Positions 607 to 59,182 of a stretch of DNA of 64,000 nucleotides are shown piece by piece. Origin of the DNA: an uncultured Candidatus Saccharibacteria bacterium (lineage in GTDB: Bacteria > Patescibacteriota > Dojkabacteria > J137); NCBI GenBank assembly GCA_964607415.1, contig CAZSKK010000002.1, positions 158,380-222,379 of the forward strand. The letters are read 5' to 3'. Every line of letters starts with the position of its first letter. Position 1 is the stretch's first letter. Both the position numbers and the translations under genes were made by a program. The notes under the pieces are model-generated. The model was not told the DNA's origin. It worked only from the letters and a program-made list of their open reading frames with translations, and made no database searches.

Positions 607-1047
607 TTAACGTTTTAGCATTTGTTTACGTATCTCCATCCAAATTTTGCCCATTTCATTTCTACCATTTCCATCAGGTCCGGTCCCCCAAAAACTATCA
701 AATGGATTATCTTCAATAATTTCAGCATCTCCCGATTTTATTAATGCATCACTTACTTCTTTATGTTGCTTGGCCTTTATCGAATTAAGATTCCTCATGA
801 TTTGTACCTTATCCTTTTGGGTTAATTGCTTTTGCAAATGTGAAAAATCATTGGCAACTTTTTTTGCCATAAGAGGACTATTGGCACCTATAATTTTTAA
901 TTTTATTTTTGGGTCATCAAACTTTGCCGCATGGTAAGCATGATCTACAGTTTTATACTCCTCTCCATTAACAATTATCGAATGCGCTGACCAGTTTGAA
1001 AGCATATAATATTCTTTTTCAAAAAAAGTTATCTGTTCTGTTTTCAA
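607..1047 (-). CDS. NADAR-domain protein (YbiA/DUF1768-like N-glycosidase)
   Basis: Motifs EYKTVDHAYHAAKF and FWGTGPDGNGRNEMGKIWMEIR match the NADAR family. Confidence 0.7.
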   Translation of the reverse strand: MKTEQITFFEKEYYMLSNWSAHSIIVNGEEYKTVDHAYHAAKFDDPKIKLKIIGANSPLMAKKVANDFSHLQKQLTQKDKVQIMRNLNSIKAKQHKEVSDALIKSGDAEIIEDNPFDSFWGTGPDGNGRNEMGKIWMEIRKQMLKR

Positions 1048-1146: not shown

Positions 1147-1578
1147 TTAGTAGTTTTTCTCTCTAAAAACTAATATAAAACCATCCGGATCCTTAACCAC
1201 AATCTCTTTTGTCCCCCAAGGAAAATCAGTGATTTCTTTTGCTATTTCAAAATTATTTTTTTCACAAATTTCTAGAACTTCTTCTACTGAATTAACATCT
1301 ATCATTGCTGAAACTTTTGAACTCTTTATTAATTCTCTAAACACTTCCGGTTTAATTGCAATATGATCTTCACCTATTTCCAGCATTGCATTACCAAGAT
1401 TAAAAGTTACCCCTCTATATTTTTCTATTGCTTTAGGAAAATTAAATTTCTTAATAAAATCTTGCGGGCCATATGCAAATTCTTCCTCAAAACCAAATGA
1501 CTTGTAGAATCTATATGACTTTTCAAAGTCTTTTACTTTAATATGTATTCCTAATCTTGATAGTTTTAGTTTTCCCAT
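1147..1578 (-). CDS. VOC/glyoxalase-bleomycin-resistance family protein
   Basis: 143 aa. N-terminal LGIHIKVKDFEKSYRFYKSFGF and C-terminal DPDGFILVF are VOC-fold signatures. Confidence 0.55.
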   Translation of the reverse strand: MGKLKLSRLGIHIKVKDFEKSYRFYKSFGFEEEFAYGPQDFIKKFNFPKAIEKYRGVTFNLGNAMLEIGEDHIAIKPEVFRELIKSSKVSAMIDVNSVEEVLEICEKNNFEIAKEITDFPWGTKEIVVKDPDGFILVFREKNY

Positions 1579-1788
1579 ATAGTTGTAAATTAAAAATATT
1601 TTAGGTTAATTTAGAGCTTTGGATTTCAGACTTCTGGCTTCTGACTTCTTCTAGGCTCTCAGAACTTCAAGGTTTTAATCAGCTTTTTAATTACATACAT
1701 ACTTGCAAACATAATACAGTTTAGTGTAATATAAAGTAAATATGCAGATATACGTATATATGTAAGATTAAGTTGATTGGCCAAGATG

Positions 1789-1848: not shown

Positions 1849-2403
1849 ATGAAAGTATTTTTTACCGCCTCCTACTCAGGAAAGCAAAAGTATCAAAAGT
1901 ACTACGACCTTGTTCTAAAAGCTATTCAATCAACAGGCGCAGATATCATTTCCCCTGAACTTAACAATTATAAAAAGATTTTGACTCAAGTTGAAATGAA
2001 TAGTCTAAAAACAGACAAGGAAATTCATTATGAAGCGATAAGAAAAGGGATTATTTGGGCCGACGTTGTAATAATAGAGATTAGTAATCCCGATTTTCAA
2101 CTAGGATATGAAGCAAACCTTGCCATCCAATCTAAAAAACCAGTTTTATGCCTTTCTACAATCGAAGATTTTAGCTTAAAAATACACCACCGTTTTTTTT
2201 ATGGTGCAAAATATACAAAGTTTAATGTAAAAGACTTTGTGGTTGATTTTATTGTAAAGCACAGAAAAGAATTACTTTCAGAAAGATTTAATTTTTTTAT
2301 TTCAAAATCACAACTTCAACATTTGACAATTCAGTCAGAGAAAAATGGAATTAATATGTCTGAATATCTAAGAAAACTAATAGAAGATGATATGATTAAT
2401 TAG
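1849..2403 (+). CDS. Nucleoside 2-deoxyribosyltransferase-like (NDT/SLOG-type) domain fused to C-terminal ribbon-helix-helix (paralog 1 of 3)
   Basis: KVFFTASYSG...ADVVIIEISNPDFQLGYEANLAIQSKKPVLCL matches the NDT-like core, with a conserved Glu in the GYE motif. The C-terminal FNFFISKSQLQHLTIQSEKNGINMSEYLRKLIEDDM has a strand-helix-turn-helix RHH pattern. Confidence 0.55.
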   Translation: MKVFFTASYSGKQKYQKYYDLVLKAIQSTGADIISPELNNYKKILTQVEMNSLKTDKEIHYEAIRKGIIWADVVIIEISNPDFQLGYEANLAIQSKKPVLCLSTIEDFSLKIHHRFFYGAKYTKFNVKDFVVDFIVKHRKELLSERFNFFISKSQLQHLTIQSEKNGINMSEYLRKLIEDDMIN

Positions 2404-3784
2404 TTTTAGCTTTGTGAAGTAATGTTAAGGAAATTAATGGAAAGAGATTTAAATACATATAGTTCCATGTAACAGCATTAAATTGTATAAATACAAAAAA
2501 TACAACGCTCAAAAAGAAAAGTAAACCGCTAAAAGTTTTCATGTGCTTCAAAGAAAGCAAACCAACAATAGCACTTAAACCTATTTGAAAAGGATAAATC
2601 AAGTTCTTAAGTTTAAAAACTTGCATTATTGGTGTTAAATGAATTGCTGTTTCTGACCACCAGCCATCCTTTATTGTCTGGCTATAGAATTCAATTGTAT
2701 GAATCCTATACGATTCAAAATCAGGAAGAACAAACGCCAGAAGCAACCCGATGCCAAGGATAAGTGAGCTAATACATACAAATATCGCTTGTTTTATTTG
2801 GTATTTTTTTAAAATATAAACAAAAACAAACGGAGTAAAAATCCATGCCCACACCTGTGTAAATATTCCAATCCCCCATGCAATTGCAAAGTGATTAAGC
2901 TTATTTCTTGATAAATAATAAAGACTTGAAATTAATAAAAACCAAAACGGAGGATCGTATAGATCCGATCTGGTTATTTTATAAGGAGTCAATAAAAATA
3001 TGGTTATAATCAATATAAAAAAGATCGCTCGTAAGTCAAAAGTTATTTTTTGCCTTGACTTATAAAAGAACTTATACAAAACAGTAACAACTCCCAAATT
3101 ATATAAAATGCTTAAAAATCTAGGATCAAATCCCAAAATTACACTTGGAATATAAAATAAAAAAGTACCTGGCTGCCTTACTGCCTGAGTAAAACTTCCG
3201 TTATCAAGTAAAAAAAACTGATAAATACTCTCTCCTTTTAAAAAAGCATCTCCTTGTTTAAGAATGATAGGCATAAGATCTGTAACTTTTGCCGTAATTG
3301 GAAAGTAATAAATTTGGAGTAATGAGAAAGCGATAAATGTTAGTAGTATTATAAAAAAAGCTTCCTTTACTTTTTTAGCAAATAGAAATAAACAAAAACT
3401 TATTAGGCAAGCTATCCAAACTAACCACACAATACCCTTCTGCTTTTCTATGCCCAAAGAATCTATGTTTTTGATAGTCAAAACTGAAATGGCAAGTAAA
3501 TTAAATGCAAAAATCAGTACAACTACATATAAAAAATAATGCATTGTAATAGTTTGTTTACCCAATGTGAAATTGTATTTTCTGAAGATTAAAATAATGT
3601 TAAAAAAAACTATAGAACTTAACACCCCAAGAATCAAACTTAAAAGCTTTCTATCAATGTCCGAATCAAGCGGGAAGAAGCCATCACCTTTAATTGTTAG
3701 GATTGTAGCCAACGCAAAAAAAAGTGATCCATTTATAAATAAACTTATTTGGAACTTTTTTAAATTATTATTTTTAATTCTCAT
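2396..3784 (-). CDS. Polytopic membrane protein, putative GT-C-type glycosyltransferase
   Basis: 462 aa with more than 10 predicted TM helices. No soluble domain recognised. Assignment is by architecture only. Confidence 0.35.
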   Translation of the reverse strand: MRIKNNNLKKFQISLFINGSLFFALATILTIKGDGFFPLDSDIDRKLLSLILGVLSSIVFFNIILIFRKYNFTLGKQTITMHYFLYVVVLIFAFNLLAISVLTIKNIDSLGIEKQKGIVWLVWIACLISFCLFLFAKKVKEAFFIILLTFIAFSLLQIYYFPITAKVTDLMPIILKQGDAFLKGESIYQFFLLDNGSFTQAVRQPGTFLFYIPSVILGFDPRFLSILYNLGVVTVLYKFFYKSRQKITFDLRAIFFILIITIFLLTPYKITRSDLYDPPFWFLLISSLYYLSRNKLNHFAIAWGIGIFTQVWAWIFTPFVFVYILKKYQIKQAIFVCISSLILGIGLLLAFVLPDFESYRIHTIEFYSQTIKDGWWSETAIHLTPIMQVFKLKNLIYPFQIGLSAIVGLLSLKHMKTFSGLLFFLSVVFFVFIQFNAVTWNYMYLNLFPLISLTLLHKAKTN

Positions 3785-50148: not shown

Positions 50149-50538
50149 ATGTATAAAACTAAAGAAGGCAAAGTTTGCGCATCTCTAACAGAGGTAAAAA
50201 ACAGAACTGGTGATATTTTTGACATGGTAGATGAATTTGGCGAAGTAATTTTAACTTCTTACAATAAGGAAAGGTATAAAATTACCAAAATTGATCTTTC
50301 CTCTACACTTGAAATTAAGAGCGAGAGTAAGACTAAGGATGAAAACAGGATCCAAGCCGAAAACACTCCTAAGTACGAACCTACAACTTTTGTAGACAAT
50401 AGCAAAGAAGAAATAAGCTCAGAAGATACCAACGAAATCAATGACGAAAACCTGATCTCTAATGATTTTAAGCTTTGGGATAGAGAAAACAAGCTTGAAA
50501 AAGAGTTTGCTGAAAACGCAAAAAAAGCTCTGCAGTAA
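50149..50538 (+). CDS. Phd/YefM-like antitoxin with long acidic C-terminal tail
   Basis: N-terminal SLTEVKNRTGDIFDMVDEFGEVILTSYNKERYKI is the Phd/YefM fold pattern. Positioned 34 bp upstream of the PIN gene. Confidence 0.4.
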   Translation: MYKTKEGKVCASLTEVKNRTGDIFDMVDEFGEVILTSYNKERYKITKIDLSSTLEIKSESKTKDENRIQAENTPKYEPTTFVDNSKEEISSEDTNEINDENLISNDFKLWDRENKLEKEFAENAKKALQ

Positions 50539-50572
50539 ATCAAACTAATATTATTTTATATTAACTCAAAAA

Positions 50573-50947
50573 ATGAAAGACACAATAATGGTTGACACAG
50601 ACATAATTGTTGAATACTTAAAAACAGGTAAGGGACTATTACCAACAGCGTACGAAAAATATAAAATGGTAATTAGCTCTGTGAACTATATTGAATTACT
50701 TGCCAGCAAGACTTTTACCGATAGCGACCTTGAAAAAGAAGTTTTAGAATTTGTTGAAAAGTATTTTGAAGTTTTGGATGTTAATCAAGAAGTTTCTGAT
50801 TTAGCTGGAAAGCTTTTAAGAGAGAACGATTTAACTCTATCTACAGCCATAATTGCAGCTTCTGCAATAACAAATAAGGTATCACTACTTACAGAATCTA
50901 AGGATAAATATAAAGGGATTGAAAATCTTGAATTTGTGAGTTTGTAG
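50573..50947 (+). CDS. PIN-domain ribonuclease (VapC-like toxin)
   Basis: N-terminal MVDTDIIVEYL (acidic D4-type residue) and later TAIIAASA...SLLTESKD are PIN-fold conserved acidic positions. 124 aa. Confidence 0.55.
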   Translation: MKDTIMVDTDIIVEYLKTGKGLLPTAYEKYKMVISSVNYIELLASKTFTDSDLEKEVLEFVEKYFEVLDVNQEVSDLAGKLLRENDLTLSTAIIAASAITNKVSLLTESKDKYKGIENLEFVSL

Positions 50948-50954
50948 AAAGAAT

Positions 50955-51028
50955 TTCGGAGAGACAGGACTCGAACCTGCAACCCCACGCTCCCAAAGCG
51001 TGTATTCTAGCCAATTGAACTACTCTCC
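50955..51028 (-). tRNA. tRNA-Pro (anticodon TGG)
   Basis: Reverse complement folds as CGGAGAG-TA-GTTC-AATTGGCTA-GAAT-A-CACGC-TTTGGGA-GCGTG-GGGTT-GCAGG-TTCGAGT-CCTGT-CTCTCCG-A. C1:G72 is typical of bacterial tRNA-Pro. Confidence 0.75.
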
Positions 51029-51553
51029 GCTTAGTTGTTCGAAAAGATTTTACCACATAAATACCTATTCTTGTATATATCTTTTAGGTTCAACACTTAC
51101 AAAGATTGCATAAATCATTTTTTTTGGCATTCTTGCAATCATAATTATTTGAATAGCTTGACTAAACTGTGAAACATTTCTCATTATTATATTTAGACTA
51201 AGAAATCCTATAAATAATACGTGATTTTGTTGTTTCCTTTAAACTTATTCCAGAGGCATGACTTGGACTGCCAGCTACCATGCGCTTTGGAGCTAACCCC
51301 TTCTTATCATTTGTCCGAATCGCTGCCAGTAAGTAATCGGACGCAGTTAGTTCTAATGTAACCAACAATATACCTTCTTTTAATCTCAAGCTTTTTAAAC
51401 AAATTGCCACTTCCCCACTTTGAAAATTTAGGCGCCTAAAATCTCAATCCAAAGGCTATCAAGTATAACTAACATTTGCAAGAAAAGGTTTGAGATTAAA
51501 AGCGACAATTTATCATAAAGTATTAAAAATAAGCACAGGCCGAAAATTACTAC

Positions 51554-51583
51554 TTGCGCATTGTATGCATACATGTGTATAAT
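51554..51583 (+). promoter_or_regulatory. Sigma-70-like promoter (TTGCGC-18-TATAAT) with embedded 12-bp perfect palindrome TGTATGCATACA
   Basis: The -35 and -10 hexamers are 18 bp apart. The palindrome at 51562-51573 lies in the spacer, about 40 bp upstream of the NDT-like-RHH paralog 2 start. Confidence 0.4.
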
Positions 51584-51615
51584 ATACACAATTAAGTTAT
51601 TATACCCAACTACAA

Positions 51616-52200
51616 ATGAAAATACTTTACATTTGCTCTATTGACCAATTTAAAACAAACAGAGAAAGGTACAACCTTATTCGCAGAATATTGCTAGCCA
51701 CCGGGCACGAGCTTACCTTTGATTGGCTTACAAAAATAGAAAATAACCTTGGGCAGTACTCTAAACTAAACCTTTCCAGACTTTTCGACAGCACTATAGC
51801 AGCCATAAAAGAATCTGATGCAGTTGTCATAGAAGGCACTATACCAAGCTTTGAGGCAGGATTCATTGCTAATTTCGCAGCTAAAAATCGTAAGTCAGTG
51901 TTGATTTTAATAGAAGGAAATGAAGGGGTTGATTTTTCAAGCTTAAATATAATTGAAACCGAACACATTTTTATAAAAAACTATAACAAGGAAAATATTG
52001 AAAACCTACTTTCAGAATTTTTAAAAGATAACGCTGGAGAACCTTCTTATAGATTTAATATAATCCTTGGCAGAAGGCAGAAGAACTACTTAAACTGGGC
52101 TGATAGATTTTACAGAAAAAGCAAATCGGAACTGATCAGGGAGATAATTGATGATAAGGCAAATAATGACGTGAACTATCTACGTATTGGAGGTAAATGA
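51616..52200 (+). CDS. NDT-like (SLOG-type) domain fused to C-terminal ribbon-helix-helix (paralog 2 of 3)
   Basis: KILYICSID...DAVVIEGTIPSFEAGFIANFAAKNRKSVLIL is the NDT-like core. C-terminal RFNIILGRRQKNYLNWADRFYRKSKSELIREIIDD is the RHH. Confidence 0.5.
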   Translation: MKILYICSIDQFKTNRERYNLIRRILLATGHELTFDWLTKIENNLGQYSKLNLSRLFDSTIAAIKESDAVVIEGTIPSFEAGFIANFAAKNRKSVLILIEGNEGVDFSSLNIIETEHIFIKNYNKENIENLLSEFLKDNAGEPSYRFNIILGRRQKNYLNWADRFYRKSKSELIREIIDDKANNDVNYLRIGGK

Positions 52201-57645: not shown

Positions 57646-58236
57646 TTACAAAGATCGCGTGATATCTTCGTTGATAATTCCCCTAACAGTGGCATTAAAA
57701 GAAGATTTTTTATCAATTCGTTGTCGTTTTTGAATATGGTCCACCTGCTCTTGAGTAAATTCTATAGGAATCCTTTTCACGAAAATGCCTTTCTGAGCTT
57801 TTTTCAAAAAACTTTCAATTCTTTCTTTTAAATTATATTTATTATACTTATAAATAGTTAGTAGTTTTGACGGATTGCCTCTAAGGGGAGCTCCGGGGAC
57901 AGTTTTTACTTTATCGGACCTCAAAACTAGCACTGGCTTATCATTAGCAACTGCATAACCTATCTCATACCCAACAGCTGAGCTCGGATGACTTAGTTCT
58001 GCAATAAATATATCTGCTTCTTTTATTTTTTTTTGAACTGAAACATAGTAATCTGTAATCTTTTCCTTGCTAAATCCGTGTGCTTCCTCAATACCTATAT
58101 TATTGACATCATCCCAAACGATAAAACCTAAGTCTCTTAGGATTGAAGCAATTTGTTCAAAGTATTTACCATATTGCTCTTTAGCTGCCAGCGAAGCTAC
58201 AAAGTATACCTTTTTTTTGTTAAAGCTCTTTTCCAT
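57646..58236 (-). CDS. NDT-like (SLOG-type) domain fused to C-terminal ribbon-helix-helix (paralog 3 of 3)
   Basis: KKVYFVASLAAKEQ...ADIFIAELSHPSSAVGYEIGYAVANDKPVLVL is the NDT-like core. C-terminal RIPIEFTQEQVDHIQKRQRIDKKSSFNATVRGIINEDI is the RHH. Overlaps the upstream methyltransferase gene by 17 nt, so an operon is likely. Confidence 0.55.
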   Translation of the reverse strand: MEKSFNKKKVYFVASLAAKEQYGKYFEQIASILRDLGFIVWDDVNNIGIEEAHGFSKEKITDYYVSVQKKIKEADIFIAELSHPSSAVGYEIGYAVANDKPVLVLRSDKVKTVPGAPLRGNPSKLLTIYKYNKYNLKERIESFLKKAQKGIFVKRIPIEFTQEQVDHIQKRQRIDKKSSFNATVRGIINEDITRSL

Positions 58237-59182
58237 ATCTTGATTTTAACGCCTGATCACTTAATTTTACAAATTTTAAAACTGCAAACATAGTATTAAA
58301 AATATTCTGCAAGAAAATATGCGGCTTTGCTGCAAAAGCCTCCTCAGTATTTTCTATGCTAGGTTCCCACATTCCGATCAAACCAAAACCTTCTCTGGCA
58401 AATGAGTTTACATAAAACTGGAATGGTCGAACAAAGAAATCTGTAGTTTCCAAGACTTCTCCTTTTTGATCTTTCCAGTCATATTGCAACTTTTTATGTA
58501 ACAAATACTGCTCCCCTCCTTCTATCTGCGAAAGGTTTCTAAATCTGCTTATCGATGAAAGGTTTGGGTGAGGAATAACCACATAACAATCGCCACCTGA
58601 TCTAAGTAATCTTCTTGTCTCTTTAATTACAGCAACCACTTCTTCATCGTTAATTGACTGCAAAAGCATTACTTGTAAAACAATGCTGAAGCTACTATCT
58701 TCTATACTTAATCTTTGTGCATCCCCTTTTACAAAAGAAACTTCTGCGCCGTCACCTGGTTTTATAAATCTATAAACATTAGATCGTGCTTTAGAAAGCA
58801 TTTCGTTCGAGTTATCTACCCCTACTATTTGTAGGCCGGGAAATTCTTGAGCCAAACTACACATTAGCAAGCCATTTCCACACCCTAAATCTAGCACAGG
58901 TTTTTCTTTTATTTCATTTGCCCATACGAAATCTTCAGTTAACTCCCGTATTAAAGTTGGAAGAATAACAAATTGATGAGCGTAATCTATTTGCTCTTTA
59001 ATTGAGTGGTAATAATTAGCTGCTACTGTATCCCACGGATTGTAACCTTCTAGACCTTCTGACATTTTTACAAAATTTTCTCTAAATTTTTTCTCAAGGC
59101 ATGAATAATTATAACAGATGGAAATATTTTTGTCTGTTGCAATTTTCAATTGCCTTTTTTTCCAATCTAATACTATAATCAC
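58220..59182 (-). CDS. Class I SAM-dependent methyltransferase
   Basis: Motif I VLDLGCGNGLL. Acidic motif II VGVDNS. Confidence 0.65.
   Translation of the reverse strand: MIIVLDWKKRQLKIATDKNISICYNYSCLEKKFRENFVKMSEGLEGYNPWDTVAANYYHSIKEQIDYAHQFVILPTLIRELTEDFVWANEIKEKPVLDLGCGNGLLMCSLAQEFPGLQIVGVDNSNEMLSKARSNVYRFIKPGDGAEVSFVKGDAQRLSIEDSSFSIVLQVMLLQSINDEEVVAVIKETRRLLRSGGDCYVVIPHPNLSSISRFRNLSQIEGGEQYLLHKKLQYDWKDQKGEVLETTDFFVRPFQFYVNSFAREGFGLIGMWEPSIENTEEAFAAKPHIFLQNIFNTMFAVLKFVKLSDQALKSRYGKEL

Follow-up and report, generated by a model that had tools for sequence, protein, structure and literature searches.

Candidate one-component regulators that pair a nucleoside deoxyribosyltransferase-like domain with a ribbon-helix-helix tail in Patescibacteria

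Introduction

Bacteria of the candidate phyla radiation (CPR, or Patescibacteria) have tiny genomes with few recognizable regulators and rely on nucleoside salvage; little is understood of the means by which they monitor their metabolism. Three dispersed genes in a 64,000-nucleotide stretch of DNA, hereafter the window (contig CAZSKK010000002.1, positions 158,380 to 222,379, assembly GCA_964607415.1, an uncultured Candidatus Saccharibacteria bacterium placed in the Dojkabacteria by GTDB), were described in an earlier sequence-only reading as sharing one layout. In each product, an N-terminal domain like that of the nucleoside 2-deoxyribosyltransferases (NDT) was proposed to be followed by a C-terminal ribbon-helix-helix (RHH) DNA-binding tail. 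The question raised by this locus is whether such proteins process nucleosides, respond to them as regulators of transcription, or do something else.

Comparison of the three genes with their relatives and of their upstream regions suggests, at a probability of roughly 60%, that the family consists of one-component RHH transcription regulators with a nucleoside- or nucleotide-binding domain of the type seen in NDT and in the nucleotide hydrolase DNPH1 (also called Rcl). The joining of RHH modules to sensors or enzymes is an established design, examples of which are discussed below. The new elements would be the pairing of an NDT/DNPH1 input domain with an RHH, the lineage, the operator and the regulon, all of which appear undescribed. 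No description of an NDT/DNPH1-RHH fusion was found in the literature, which agrees with the earlier remark that the fusion is uncharacterized; a mention in a 2015 Nucleic Acids Research paper on nucleotide-centric systems is possible.

Results

Three paralogs with a shared architecture

The three open reading frames were found at exactly the coordinates first reported, and each was assigned to its own subfamily (F1, F2 or F3):

1849..2403, + strand: paralog 1 (subfamily F1), 184 residues, NDT-like domain and RHH tail
51616..52200, + strand: paralog 2 (subfamily F2), 194 residues, DNPH1-like fold and RHH tail
57646..58236, - strand: paralog 3 (subfamily F3), 196 residues, DNPH1-type triad and RHH tail

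The proteins align with one another over their full lengths, as had been supposed, paralogs 2 and 3 being 27-29% identical to paralog 1, and each half of the alignment contains invariant positions. A family profile run against the open reading frames of the 64-kb window recovered no member besides these three. The paralogy is ancient, since other genomes carry separate orthologues of each gene. Profile and fold searches led the N-terminal half to PF05014 and DNPH1 and the tail to RHH families including CopG; the two-domain layout is therefore real by Pfam and PDB profiles, AlphaFold and Foldseek alike.

Fold and active site of the N-terminal domain

1849..2265, + strand: NDT/DNPH1-type domain of paralog 1, residues 1-139

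The nucleoside 2-deoxyribosyltransferase family PF05014 matched paralog 3 at 46.8 bits, above the gathering cut-off of 28.8, and matched paralog 1 (25.0 bits, E 2e-5) and paralog 2 (14.7 bits, E 0.035) below it; 83 of 139 family members were matched at E<=0.01. A phmmer search of PDB sequences with paralog 3 gave Rcl/DNPH1 at E 6e-9, with PSSAVGYEIG paired to PSLGVGYELG. AlphaFold models computed from family alignments had a mean predicted local distance difference test (pLDDT) score of 92.4 for paralog 1 and 89.2 for paralog 2. Both models are three-layer alpha/beta folds and can be superposed on the solved structures of NDT, DNPH1 and MilB; Foldseek placed them on DNPH1/Rcl at E 7e-7 (paralog 1) and 9e-6 (paralog 2), with target-normalized template modelling (TM) scores of 0.7-0.8. 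The top structural matches are all enzymes. Sequence and structure thus agree on the NDT-like assignment. The alternative label of a SLOG-type domain was not borne out, the best sequence and structure matches lying outside the SLOG superfamily (LOG, DprA, YpsA-type) and closer to NDT/DNPH1; SLOG applies only in the sense of the broad, Rossmann-like TIR/deoxyribohydrolase/SLOG class, whose members switch between catalysis and pure ligand sensing (PMC9503650).

The catalytic triad of human DNPH1 is Y24/D80/E104, with E104 as the nucleophile, and the 5'-phosphate is bound by S98 together with S128' of the partner subunit; an E104Q mutant binds intact substrate and does not cleave it (PMC10603095). 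The aligned residues in the window are as follows:

Paralog 1: Tyr position F4; Asp D72; nucleophile position E88; six before the Glu, D82
Paralog 2: Tyr position L4; Asp D68; nucleophile position I84; six before that position, S78
Paralog 3: Tyr position Y11; Asp D75; nucleophile E91; six before the Glu, S85

Paralog 3 has the complete DNPH1-type triad along with Ser85, and S78 of paralog 2 is likewise DNPH1-like. At the second phosphate-binding Ser position paralog 3 has a Gly, and it is without the GSIRGG loop. Across F1, Phe4 is invariant and D82 nearly so, the Phe standing where DNPH1 and NDT have the catalytic Tyr. The Glu of the PSFEAG motif in paralog 2 had been taken for the conserved Glu; it lies four residues upstream of the catalytic position, where the aligned residue is Ile84. 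Without the nucleophile Glu and the Tyr, paralog 2 is likely non-catalytic, to judge from this alignment.

The residue six before the Glu sets 5' specificity in these enzymes, and D92 of NDT contacts the 5'-OH. D82 of paralog 1 aligns to what we take, from a presumed sequence and numbering, to be D92 of the Lactobacillus NDT. The Asp of F1, as in NDTs, therefore suggests that the ligand is a nucleoside and not a nucleotide, and the Ser of F3, as in DNPH1, points to a nucleotide. Of 147 diverse family representatives, 101 have Glu at the nucleophile position, 22 have Gln and 10 have Leu, and 131 keep the Asp. Such apparently mixed catalytic and non-catalytic membership is typical of enzyme folds recruited as sensors.

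These residues also bear on a different account, according to which the proteins are in the first place active N-glycosidases or deoxyribosyltransferases, serving nucleoside salvage or nucleotide-pool sanitation, tasks of importance to salvage-dependent CPR bacteria, with the RHH providing no more than feedback autoregulation as in PutA. The neighbouring genes described below, which encode VOC, EamA and methyltransferase proteins, would then be metabolic partners and not regulated targets. Retention of the Asp in 131 and of the Glu in 101 of the 147 representatives argues for this account, but the nucleophile is missing in about 30% of them and in paralog 2; the top structural matches are all enzymes, but the catalytic Tyr is replaced throughout F1 by Phe; and paralog 3 has the full triad and Ser85, as in DNPH1, but not the second phosphate-binding Ser or the GSIRGG loop. 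The divergent gene layout of F1, with a shared footprinted palindrome, is moreover typical of a regulator and its target. This enzyme-first account is possible rather than probable, and it overlaps the regulator reading.

The C-terminal ribbon-helix-helix tail

2278..2397, + strand: RHH tail of paralog 1, residues 144-183; predicted strand ERFNFFIS, helix A at 153-166, helix B at 170-183
52045..52170, + strand: RHH tail of paralog 2, residues 144-185; strand YRFNIIL, helices at 153-166 and 170-184; E 8e-18 to the tail profile
57658..57789, - strand: RHH tail of paralog 3, residues 150-193; strand KRIPIEF followed by two helices; E 3e-18 to the tail profile

The family tail consensus, RFNxFLSxxQxxYLxxxxxxxGxxxSEYxRxLIDxD, has the RHH pattern, and its strand motif R-F-N is common to F1 and F2. 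Pfam matches of paralog 1 by itself were sub-threshold (RHH_3 at E 0.001, its 19.4 bits falling short of the cut-off of 21.6; NikA-like at E 0.007). Over 139 members, the RHH clan was represented by NikA-like in 35 (best E 5e-6), RHH_3 in seven (1.5e-5), RHH_1 in two (1e-4) and RepB-RCR_reg in one. When a profile of the tail only was compared with the PDB, CopG was ranked first (E 0.02) and in register, and AvtR, NikA and Arc were also listed; hhalign of the tail with CopG gave 84% probability and E 7e-6 over 37 columns, the match holding in register through the strand, helix A and helix B. The models of paralogs 1 and 2 contain an extended segment at residues 140-152 followed by two helices, the strand being unformed in the monomer as an RHH predicts. 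The signature Arg residues of the fold are present in the strand of 131 and in helix B of 136 of the 147 representatives. The RHH assignment made from the window by itself is thus upheld by the clan matches, the CopG profile match and the strand-helix-helix order in the models.

A conserved palindrome upstream of paralog 1

1147..1578, - strand: divergent gene of the VOC (glyoxalase/bleomycin-resistance) superfamily, PF00903 at E 7e-11
1747..1766, no strand: proximal operator candidate GATATACGTATATATGTAAG, with the core palindrome ATATACGTATAT at 1748-1759
1694..1703, no strand: distal, degenerate copy of the operator core, CATACATACT, with 3/10 mismatches, 55 bp from the proximal core, in keeping with the spacing in orthologous loci; weak in the window

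Fifty-nine F1 loci were collected from GTDB genomes by a contig scan with an F1-only alignment; neighbour counts were made over 58 of these and motif counts over 57. The divergent gene just upstream of F1 encodes a VOC/glyoxalase protein in 39/58 loci, an EamA transporter in 8/58 and a NADAR protein in one. Across many CPR lineages the partner is the same VOC gene, and the gene at 1147-1578 is a probable co-regulated target of paralog 1. Comparison of its product with PDB sequences returned nothing informative (best E 0.46).

The F1 intergenic region is usually 50-90 bp long. At its end, adjoining the F1 ATG, stands the palindromic consensus GATATAC(A/G)TATATAYRT, which overlaps the -10 region (several loci have TTGACA-N17-TATGTA, with the -10 box inside the motif), and an inverted partial copy opens the region at the start of the divergent gene. 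Searched as ATATAC[AG]TATAT with at most one mismatch, the motif has 34 occurrences in the F1 intergenic regions (3,969 bp; 8.6 per kb), two in the other intergenic regions of these loci (39,783 bp; 0.05 per kb) and two in all that remains of the loci (308,593 bp; 0.0065 per kb). The F1 regions are thus enriched about 170-fold relative to the other intergenic DNA. At least one site lies no more than 140 bp upstream of F1 in 51/57 loci, and at least two do so in 39/57. The proximal motif is typically centred at -11, and the two sites are spaced 55-57 bp from centre to centre. Where the divergent gene encodes EamA or NADAR instead of VOC, the motif stays with F1.

The palindrome ATATACGTATAT at 1748-1759 had been named a plausible operator on inspection, and phylogenetic footprinting across the F1 loci now backs that choice; it is the sole match with at most one mismatch in the 64-kb window. 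Palindromes as such were rejected as stand-alone evidence, single-site window statistics not being significant: with 30 perfect 12-bp palindromes observed in this 33% GC sequence and 30 +/- 5.5 expected, their number equals chance, so that real and chance sites are separated only by comparison across loci. In the window lineage the intergenic region has gained DNA, about 85-90 bp separating the motif from the ATG and ~110 bp towards the VOC gene. An array of four heptads in tandem at 1793-1820 (TTGAATC ATGAATC TTAATTC TTGAATC) had also been offered as a regulatory feature. The array is present in the window, within the added segment, and was rejected as an operator since it is absent or diverged in a 91%-identical relative and absent from the other F1 loci.

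F1 orthologues, and members of one other NDT-RHH subfamily (three loci), have a TATATA or TATAAT hexamer about 7-12 nt ahead of their start codon. A -10-like element at so short a distance, where a Shine-Dalgarno sequence is absent, suggests that transcripts are leaderless in these CPR lineages. Scans for the sigma-70 consensus around paralogs 1 and 2 gave counts at or below shuffle expectation.

Such promoter elements raise the idea that the tail is an oligomerization or regulatory extension and not a DNA binder, the palindrome being a leaderless promoter element or the site of another regulator, for example a TrmB-like one. The TATATA-like hexamer does lie within the motif, and other NDT-RHH subfamilies have a plain TATAAT at that place; but the motif is palindromic and paired at a fixed spacing of 55-57 bp, and at about 170 times the density of other intergenic regions in the same loci it is not a generic promoter. 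TrmB-family genes do occur in some F1 loci, but a TrmB-like gene lies within three genes of F1 in 6/58 loci only, and the motif accompanies F1 in 51/57. Against the sub-threshold Pfam RHH matches of single proteins stand the four RHH-clan families, the in-register matches to CopG, NikA, AvtR and Arc, and the signature Arg residues kept in about 90% of representatives. We consider a tail that does not bind DNA improbable.

Two further neighbours of paralog 1 were noted:

607..1047, - strand: NADAR-domain gene adjoining the VOC gene, PF08719 at E 3e-27
2396..3784, - strand: 462-residue multi-pass membrane protein, convergent on paralog 1 and overlapping its 3' end by 8 nt; no Pfam match

NADAR genes recur beside F1 or VOC in two other loci, divergent from F1 in one (L006) and in two copies in the other (L107), a minority association; the gene at 607-1047 may belong to the same regulon or pathway as the paralog 1 module.

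Proposed mode of action

Under the regulator reading, the RHH tails of two subunits would come together as a two-stranded ribbon and recognize the palindrome, and binding by paralog 1 would block both divergent promoters, so that the protein would repress itself together with a detoxification or export gene. A nucleoside-type ligand in the pocket of the N-terminal domain would release the DNA. Paralog 2 would probably act solely as a sensor, with repression of its own promoter exerted at TGTGTATAATATACACA, a palindrome lying over its -10 box, and paralog 3, co-transcribed with an S-adenosylmethionine (SAM) methyltransferase, may both act on and sense a nucleotide, perhaps a methylated one. As judged from conservation of the upstream regions, support for operator binding by the family RHH would be strong for F1 and fair for F2. 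The earlier proposal of a nucleotide- or nucleoside-responsive regulator gains support in its architecture, the F1 footprint and the divergent partner gene; the response to a ligand is the inferred part.

A covalent glycosyl-Glu intermediate is typical of the NDT/DNPH1 enzyme family. It is conceivable, if unlikely, that the proteins are a CPR-specific class of 'catalytic sensors', in which the N-terminal domain reacts with a nucleoside-type compound and the covalent glycosyl-Glu or bound state switches the RHH off its operator. The compound might, for example, be a nucleoside that is modified or toxic and is scavenged from a host or the surroundings; the VOC and EamA genes, for detoxification or export, would be turned on, and members without the Glu, such as paralog 2, would be reversible, binding-only derivatives.

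The paralog 2 locus

51574..51590, no strand: candidate paralog 2 operator TGTGTATAATATACACA, a 17-bp palindrome containing a TATAAT -10 box
50149..50538, + strand: gene ahead of the PIN gene, 129 residues, no Pfam match
50573..50947, + strand: PIN-domain gene, PF01850 at E 3e-9
50956..51029, - strand: tRNA-Pro(tgg), Rfam

F2 is found in stable synteny, with a PIN pair on one side and a convergent trmD on the other, and a UvrD-type helicase gene nearby. The candidate operator TGTGTATAATATACACA falls in a block, with CTTG at about -35, that is invariant in four F2 upstream regions whose encoded proteins are 40-85% identical. The window contains no second match to it, the expected number being 0.23, and it has TATAC/GTATA half-sites in common with the F1 candidate sites. 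A different palindrome in the promoter spacer, TGTATGCATACA at 51562-51573, had been proposed as the operator; it is present, adjoining TGTGTATAATATACACA, and was rejected on finding that it is not conserved in the related loci L067-L069, where its neighbour is conserved instead.

The two genes at 50149-50947 look like a VapBC-type pair and are syntenic in F2 loci L067 and L068. The interval of ~590 bp between the tRNA and paralog 2 (51030-51615) holds no convincing open reading frame and no Rfam match. Relatives carry a gene there, of the NTP_transf_6 family in L068 and a 231-residue open reading frame in L067, and the interval may be a decayed gene.

RHH domains are common DNA-binding modules of antitoxins, and the sequence-only reading had allowed for toxin/antitoxin-like regulators. 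On such a view, a toxic NADase or nucleotide-depleting N-terminal domain would be fused to an antitoxin-like RHH in a single-gene toxin-antitoxin or anti-phage module. The PIN pair upstream of paralog 2 might be taken to agree with this, but the PIN gene is already paired with the gene ahead of it, and no toxin or immunity partner is conserved beside F1, F2 (where variable genes accompany the convergent trmD) or F3. Weak TIR_2 or ThsB_TIR Pfam matches occur in some members, but PADLOC returned no significant match for any paralog (best E 0.0035), and the PHROGs phage library gave only weak NDT-type matches, for paralog 3 only. The housekeeping synteny of F2 and the constant VOC partner of F1 across CPR lineages form a vertical, core-like pattern that argues against a conflict system. 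Deoxyribohydrolase and TIR domains do act as NADase effectors in defence (PMC9503650); even so, a toxin-antitoxin or anti-phage role is very improbable here.

The paralog 3 locus

58220..59182, - strand: class I SAM methyltransferase (Pfam methyltransferase families), overlapping the start of paralog 3 by 17 nt

A methyltransferase gene precedes F3 on the same strand in the window and in three other loci (L064, L066 and L105), with an overlap or a gap of 2-4 nt in neighbourhoods that otherwise differ; a GNAT gene takes its place in L065. The tightness of this operon resembles that of an enzyme pair and favours the account in which F3 is primarily an enzyme, a possibility above all for paralog 3. 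The methyltransferase start as listed lies 3 bp from a divergent transglutaminase-like gene (59186, + strand). Homologues of 237-258 residues indicate that the true start is probably an ATG with its first base at 59064 (MSEGLEG...), which leaves a divergent promoter region of ~120 bp. The methyltransferase matched mad2 of PADLOC at 1e-16, probably through the generic methyltransferase domain.

Family size and distribution

Homologue searches returned 309 proteins of 181-210 residues for paralog 1, 35 for paralog 3 and eight for paralog 2. Run against 1.84 billion representatives of 50%-identity clusters, the family profile matched 2,196 at E<=1e-3 and 1,138 at E<=1e-10; the best 150 matches were nearly all 180-210 residues long and aligned over their full lengths. 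The tail is also present in at least two further subfamilies besides F1-F3. Members are labelled in the databases as 'hypothetical', 'nucleoside 2-deoxyribosyltransferase' or 'ribbon-helix-helix domain-containing protein'.

The paralog 1 homologues with informative names (Dojkabacteria, WS6, WWE3, Doudna-, Ames- and Levybacteria, or 'Patescibacteria group') are all from Patescibacteria, to which the family is apparently restricted. Many F1-bearing records are titled 'uncultured Gammaproteobacteria', 'Pseudomonadales' or 'Candidatus Saccharibacteria' (third-party annotation metagenome-assembled genomes) and one 'Nitrospirota'. The titles are probably unreliable, given that the F1 genes of these records fall in with those of Patescibacteria.

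A metagenome scan with the F3 alignment yielded one close F3 locus, the rest being other NDT-RHH subfamilies, tail-less genes and short partial matches. Tail-less, stand-alone DNPH1-like proteins of ~140 residues with a PSLGVGYEI motif were observed in six metagenome loci, and these are likely the ancestral single-domain form.

Discussion

Several observations weigh against the proposal that these proteins are ligand-responsive regulators. The RHH strand takes the form of an extended segment of lower confidence in the single-chain models (pLDDT about 70-76), and the Pfam RHH matches of individual proteins are under their gathering thresholds. The motif in the window lies ~90 nt upstream of the ATG and not adjacent to it, and its distal copy is degenerate. 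Because the motif overlaps a -10-like element of seemingly leaderless genes, its conservation could partly reflect the promoter or another factor. No shared operator was found upstream of the methyltransferase-F3 operon in the four loci compared, each having a different small palindrome. The Asp and Glu kept in most members are compatible with a primarily enzymatic role, and the taxonomic restriction rests on record names, many of which are uninformative or mislabelled.

With these points counted, the regulator reading is still the one that we prefer. What was first read from the window stands in its architecture, its paralogy, the regulator interpretation and the operator at 1748, and does not stand in the SLOG label, the heptads, TGTATGCATACA, the paralog 2 Glu and the toxin/antitoxin suggestion.

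The known relatives of the N-terminal domain (DNPH1/Rcl, the bacterial NDTs of PF05014 and the CMP hydrolases MilB and BlsM) are single-domain proteins of ~140-165 residues with no DNA-binding module, whereas an RHH tail of 40 residues is added here. Compared with the catalytic residues of DNPH1 and NDT, F1 has Phe for Tyr and paralog 2 is without Glu and Tyr. Classical RHH repressors (CopG, Arc, MetJ, NikA, omega and ParG) have a small RHH that stands alone or is N-terminal; in the present family, by contrast, it is C-terminal to a 140-residue domain resembling a nucleoside enzyme. The operators of CopG, Arc and MetJ are short palindromes that overlap promoters and occur in multiple sites, and the candidate operators described here are likewise short palindromes over promoters, with two sites in F1.

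Closer parallels in design are found in NikR, in which an RHH is joined to a nickel-binding ACT-like domain, in PutA, in which it is joined to proline-catabolic enzyme domains, and in HicB antitoxins, which have an N-terminal domain and a C-terminal RHH. The family shares with these the joining of an RHH to a small-molecule-binding or catalytic domain and autoregulation from a nearby operator, which is a candidate one here. The C-terminal placement is that of HicB, whose toxin partner is absent here; the metal-binding domain of NikR is also absent, the sensor domain being of the NDT/DNPH1 type. Sensors of the SLOG/TIR/deoxyribohydrolase type, such as the SLOG domain of Thoeris ThsA, belong to the same broad class, and the Glu-to-Gln and Glu-to-Leu variants found in this family fit that theme. 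Those sensors control defence effectors, however, and not DNA-binding domains, and the domain studied here is nearer to NDT/DNPH1.

The family comprises over 1,000 clusters (50% identity) and is present here three times in 64 kb. It would represent a substantial group of one-component regulators, particular to one lineage, that take their input through the fold of a nucleoside-processing enzyme. F1 offers a directly testable regulon, with a 12-bp palindrome, a fixed two-site geometry and VOC and EamA genes as targets, and the natural active-site variants with Glu, Gln or Leu would separate sensing from catalysis. The switching between enzyme and sensor known for TIR, deoxyribohydrolase and SLOG domains would be extended to the control of transcription. 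If the catalytic-sensor idea were true, it would mean a new, direct coupling of nucleoside chemistry to transcription in organisms that live by salvaging nucleosides.

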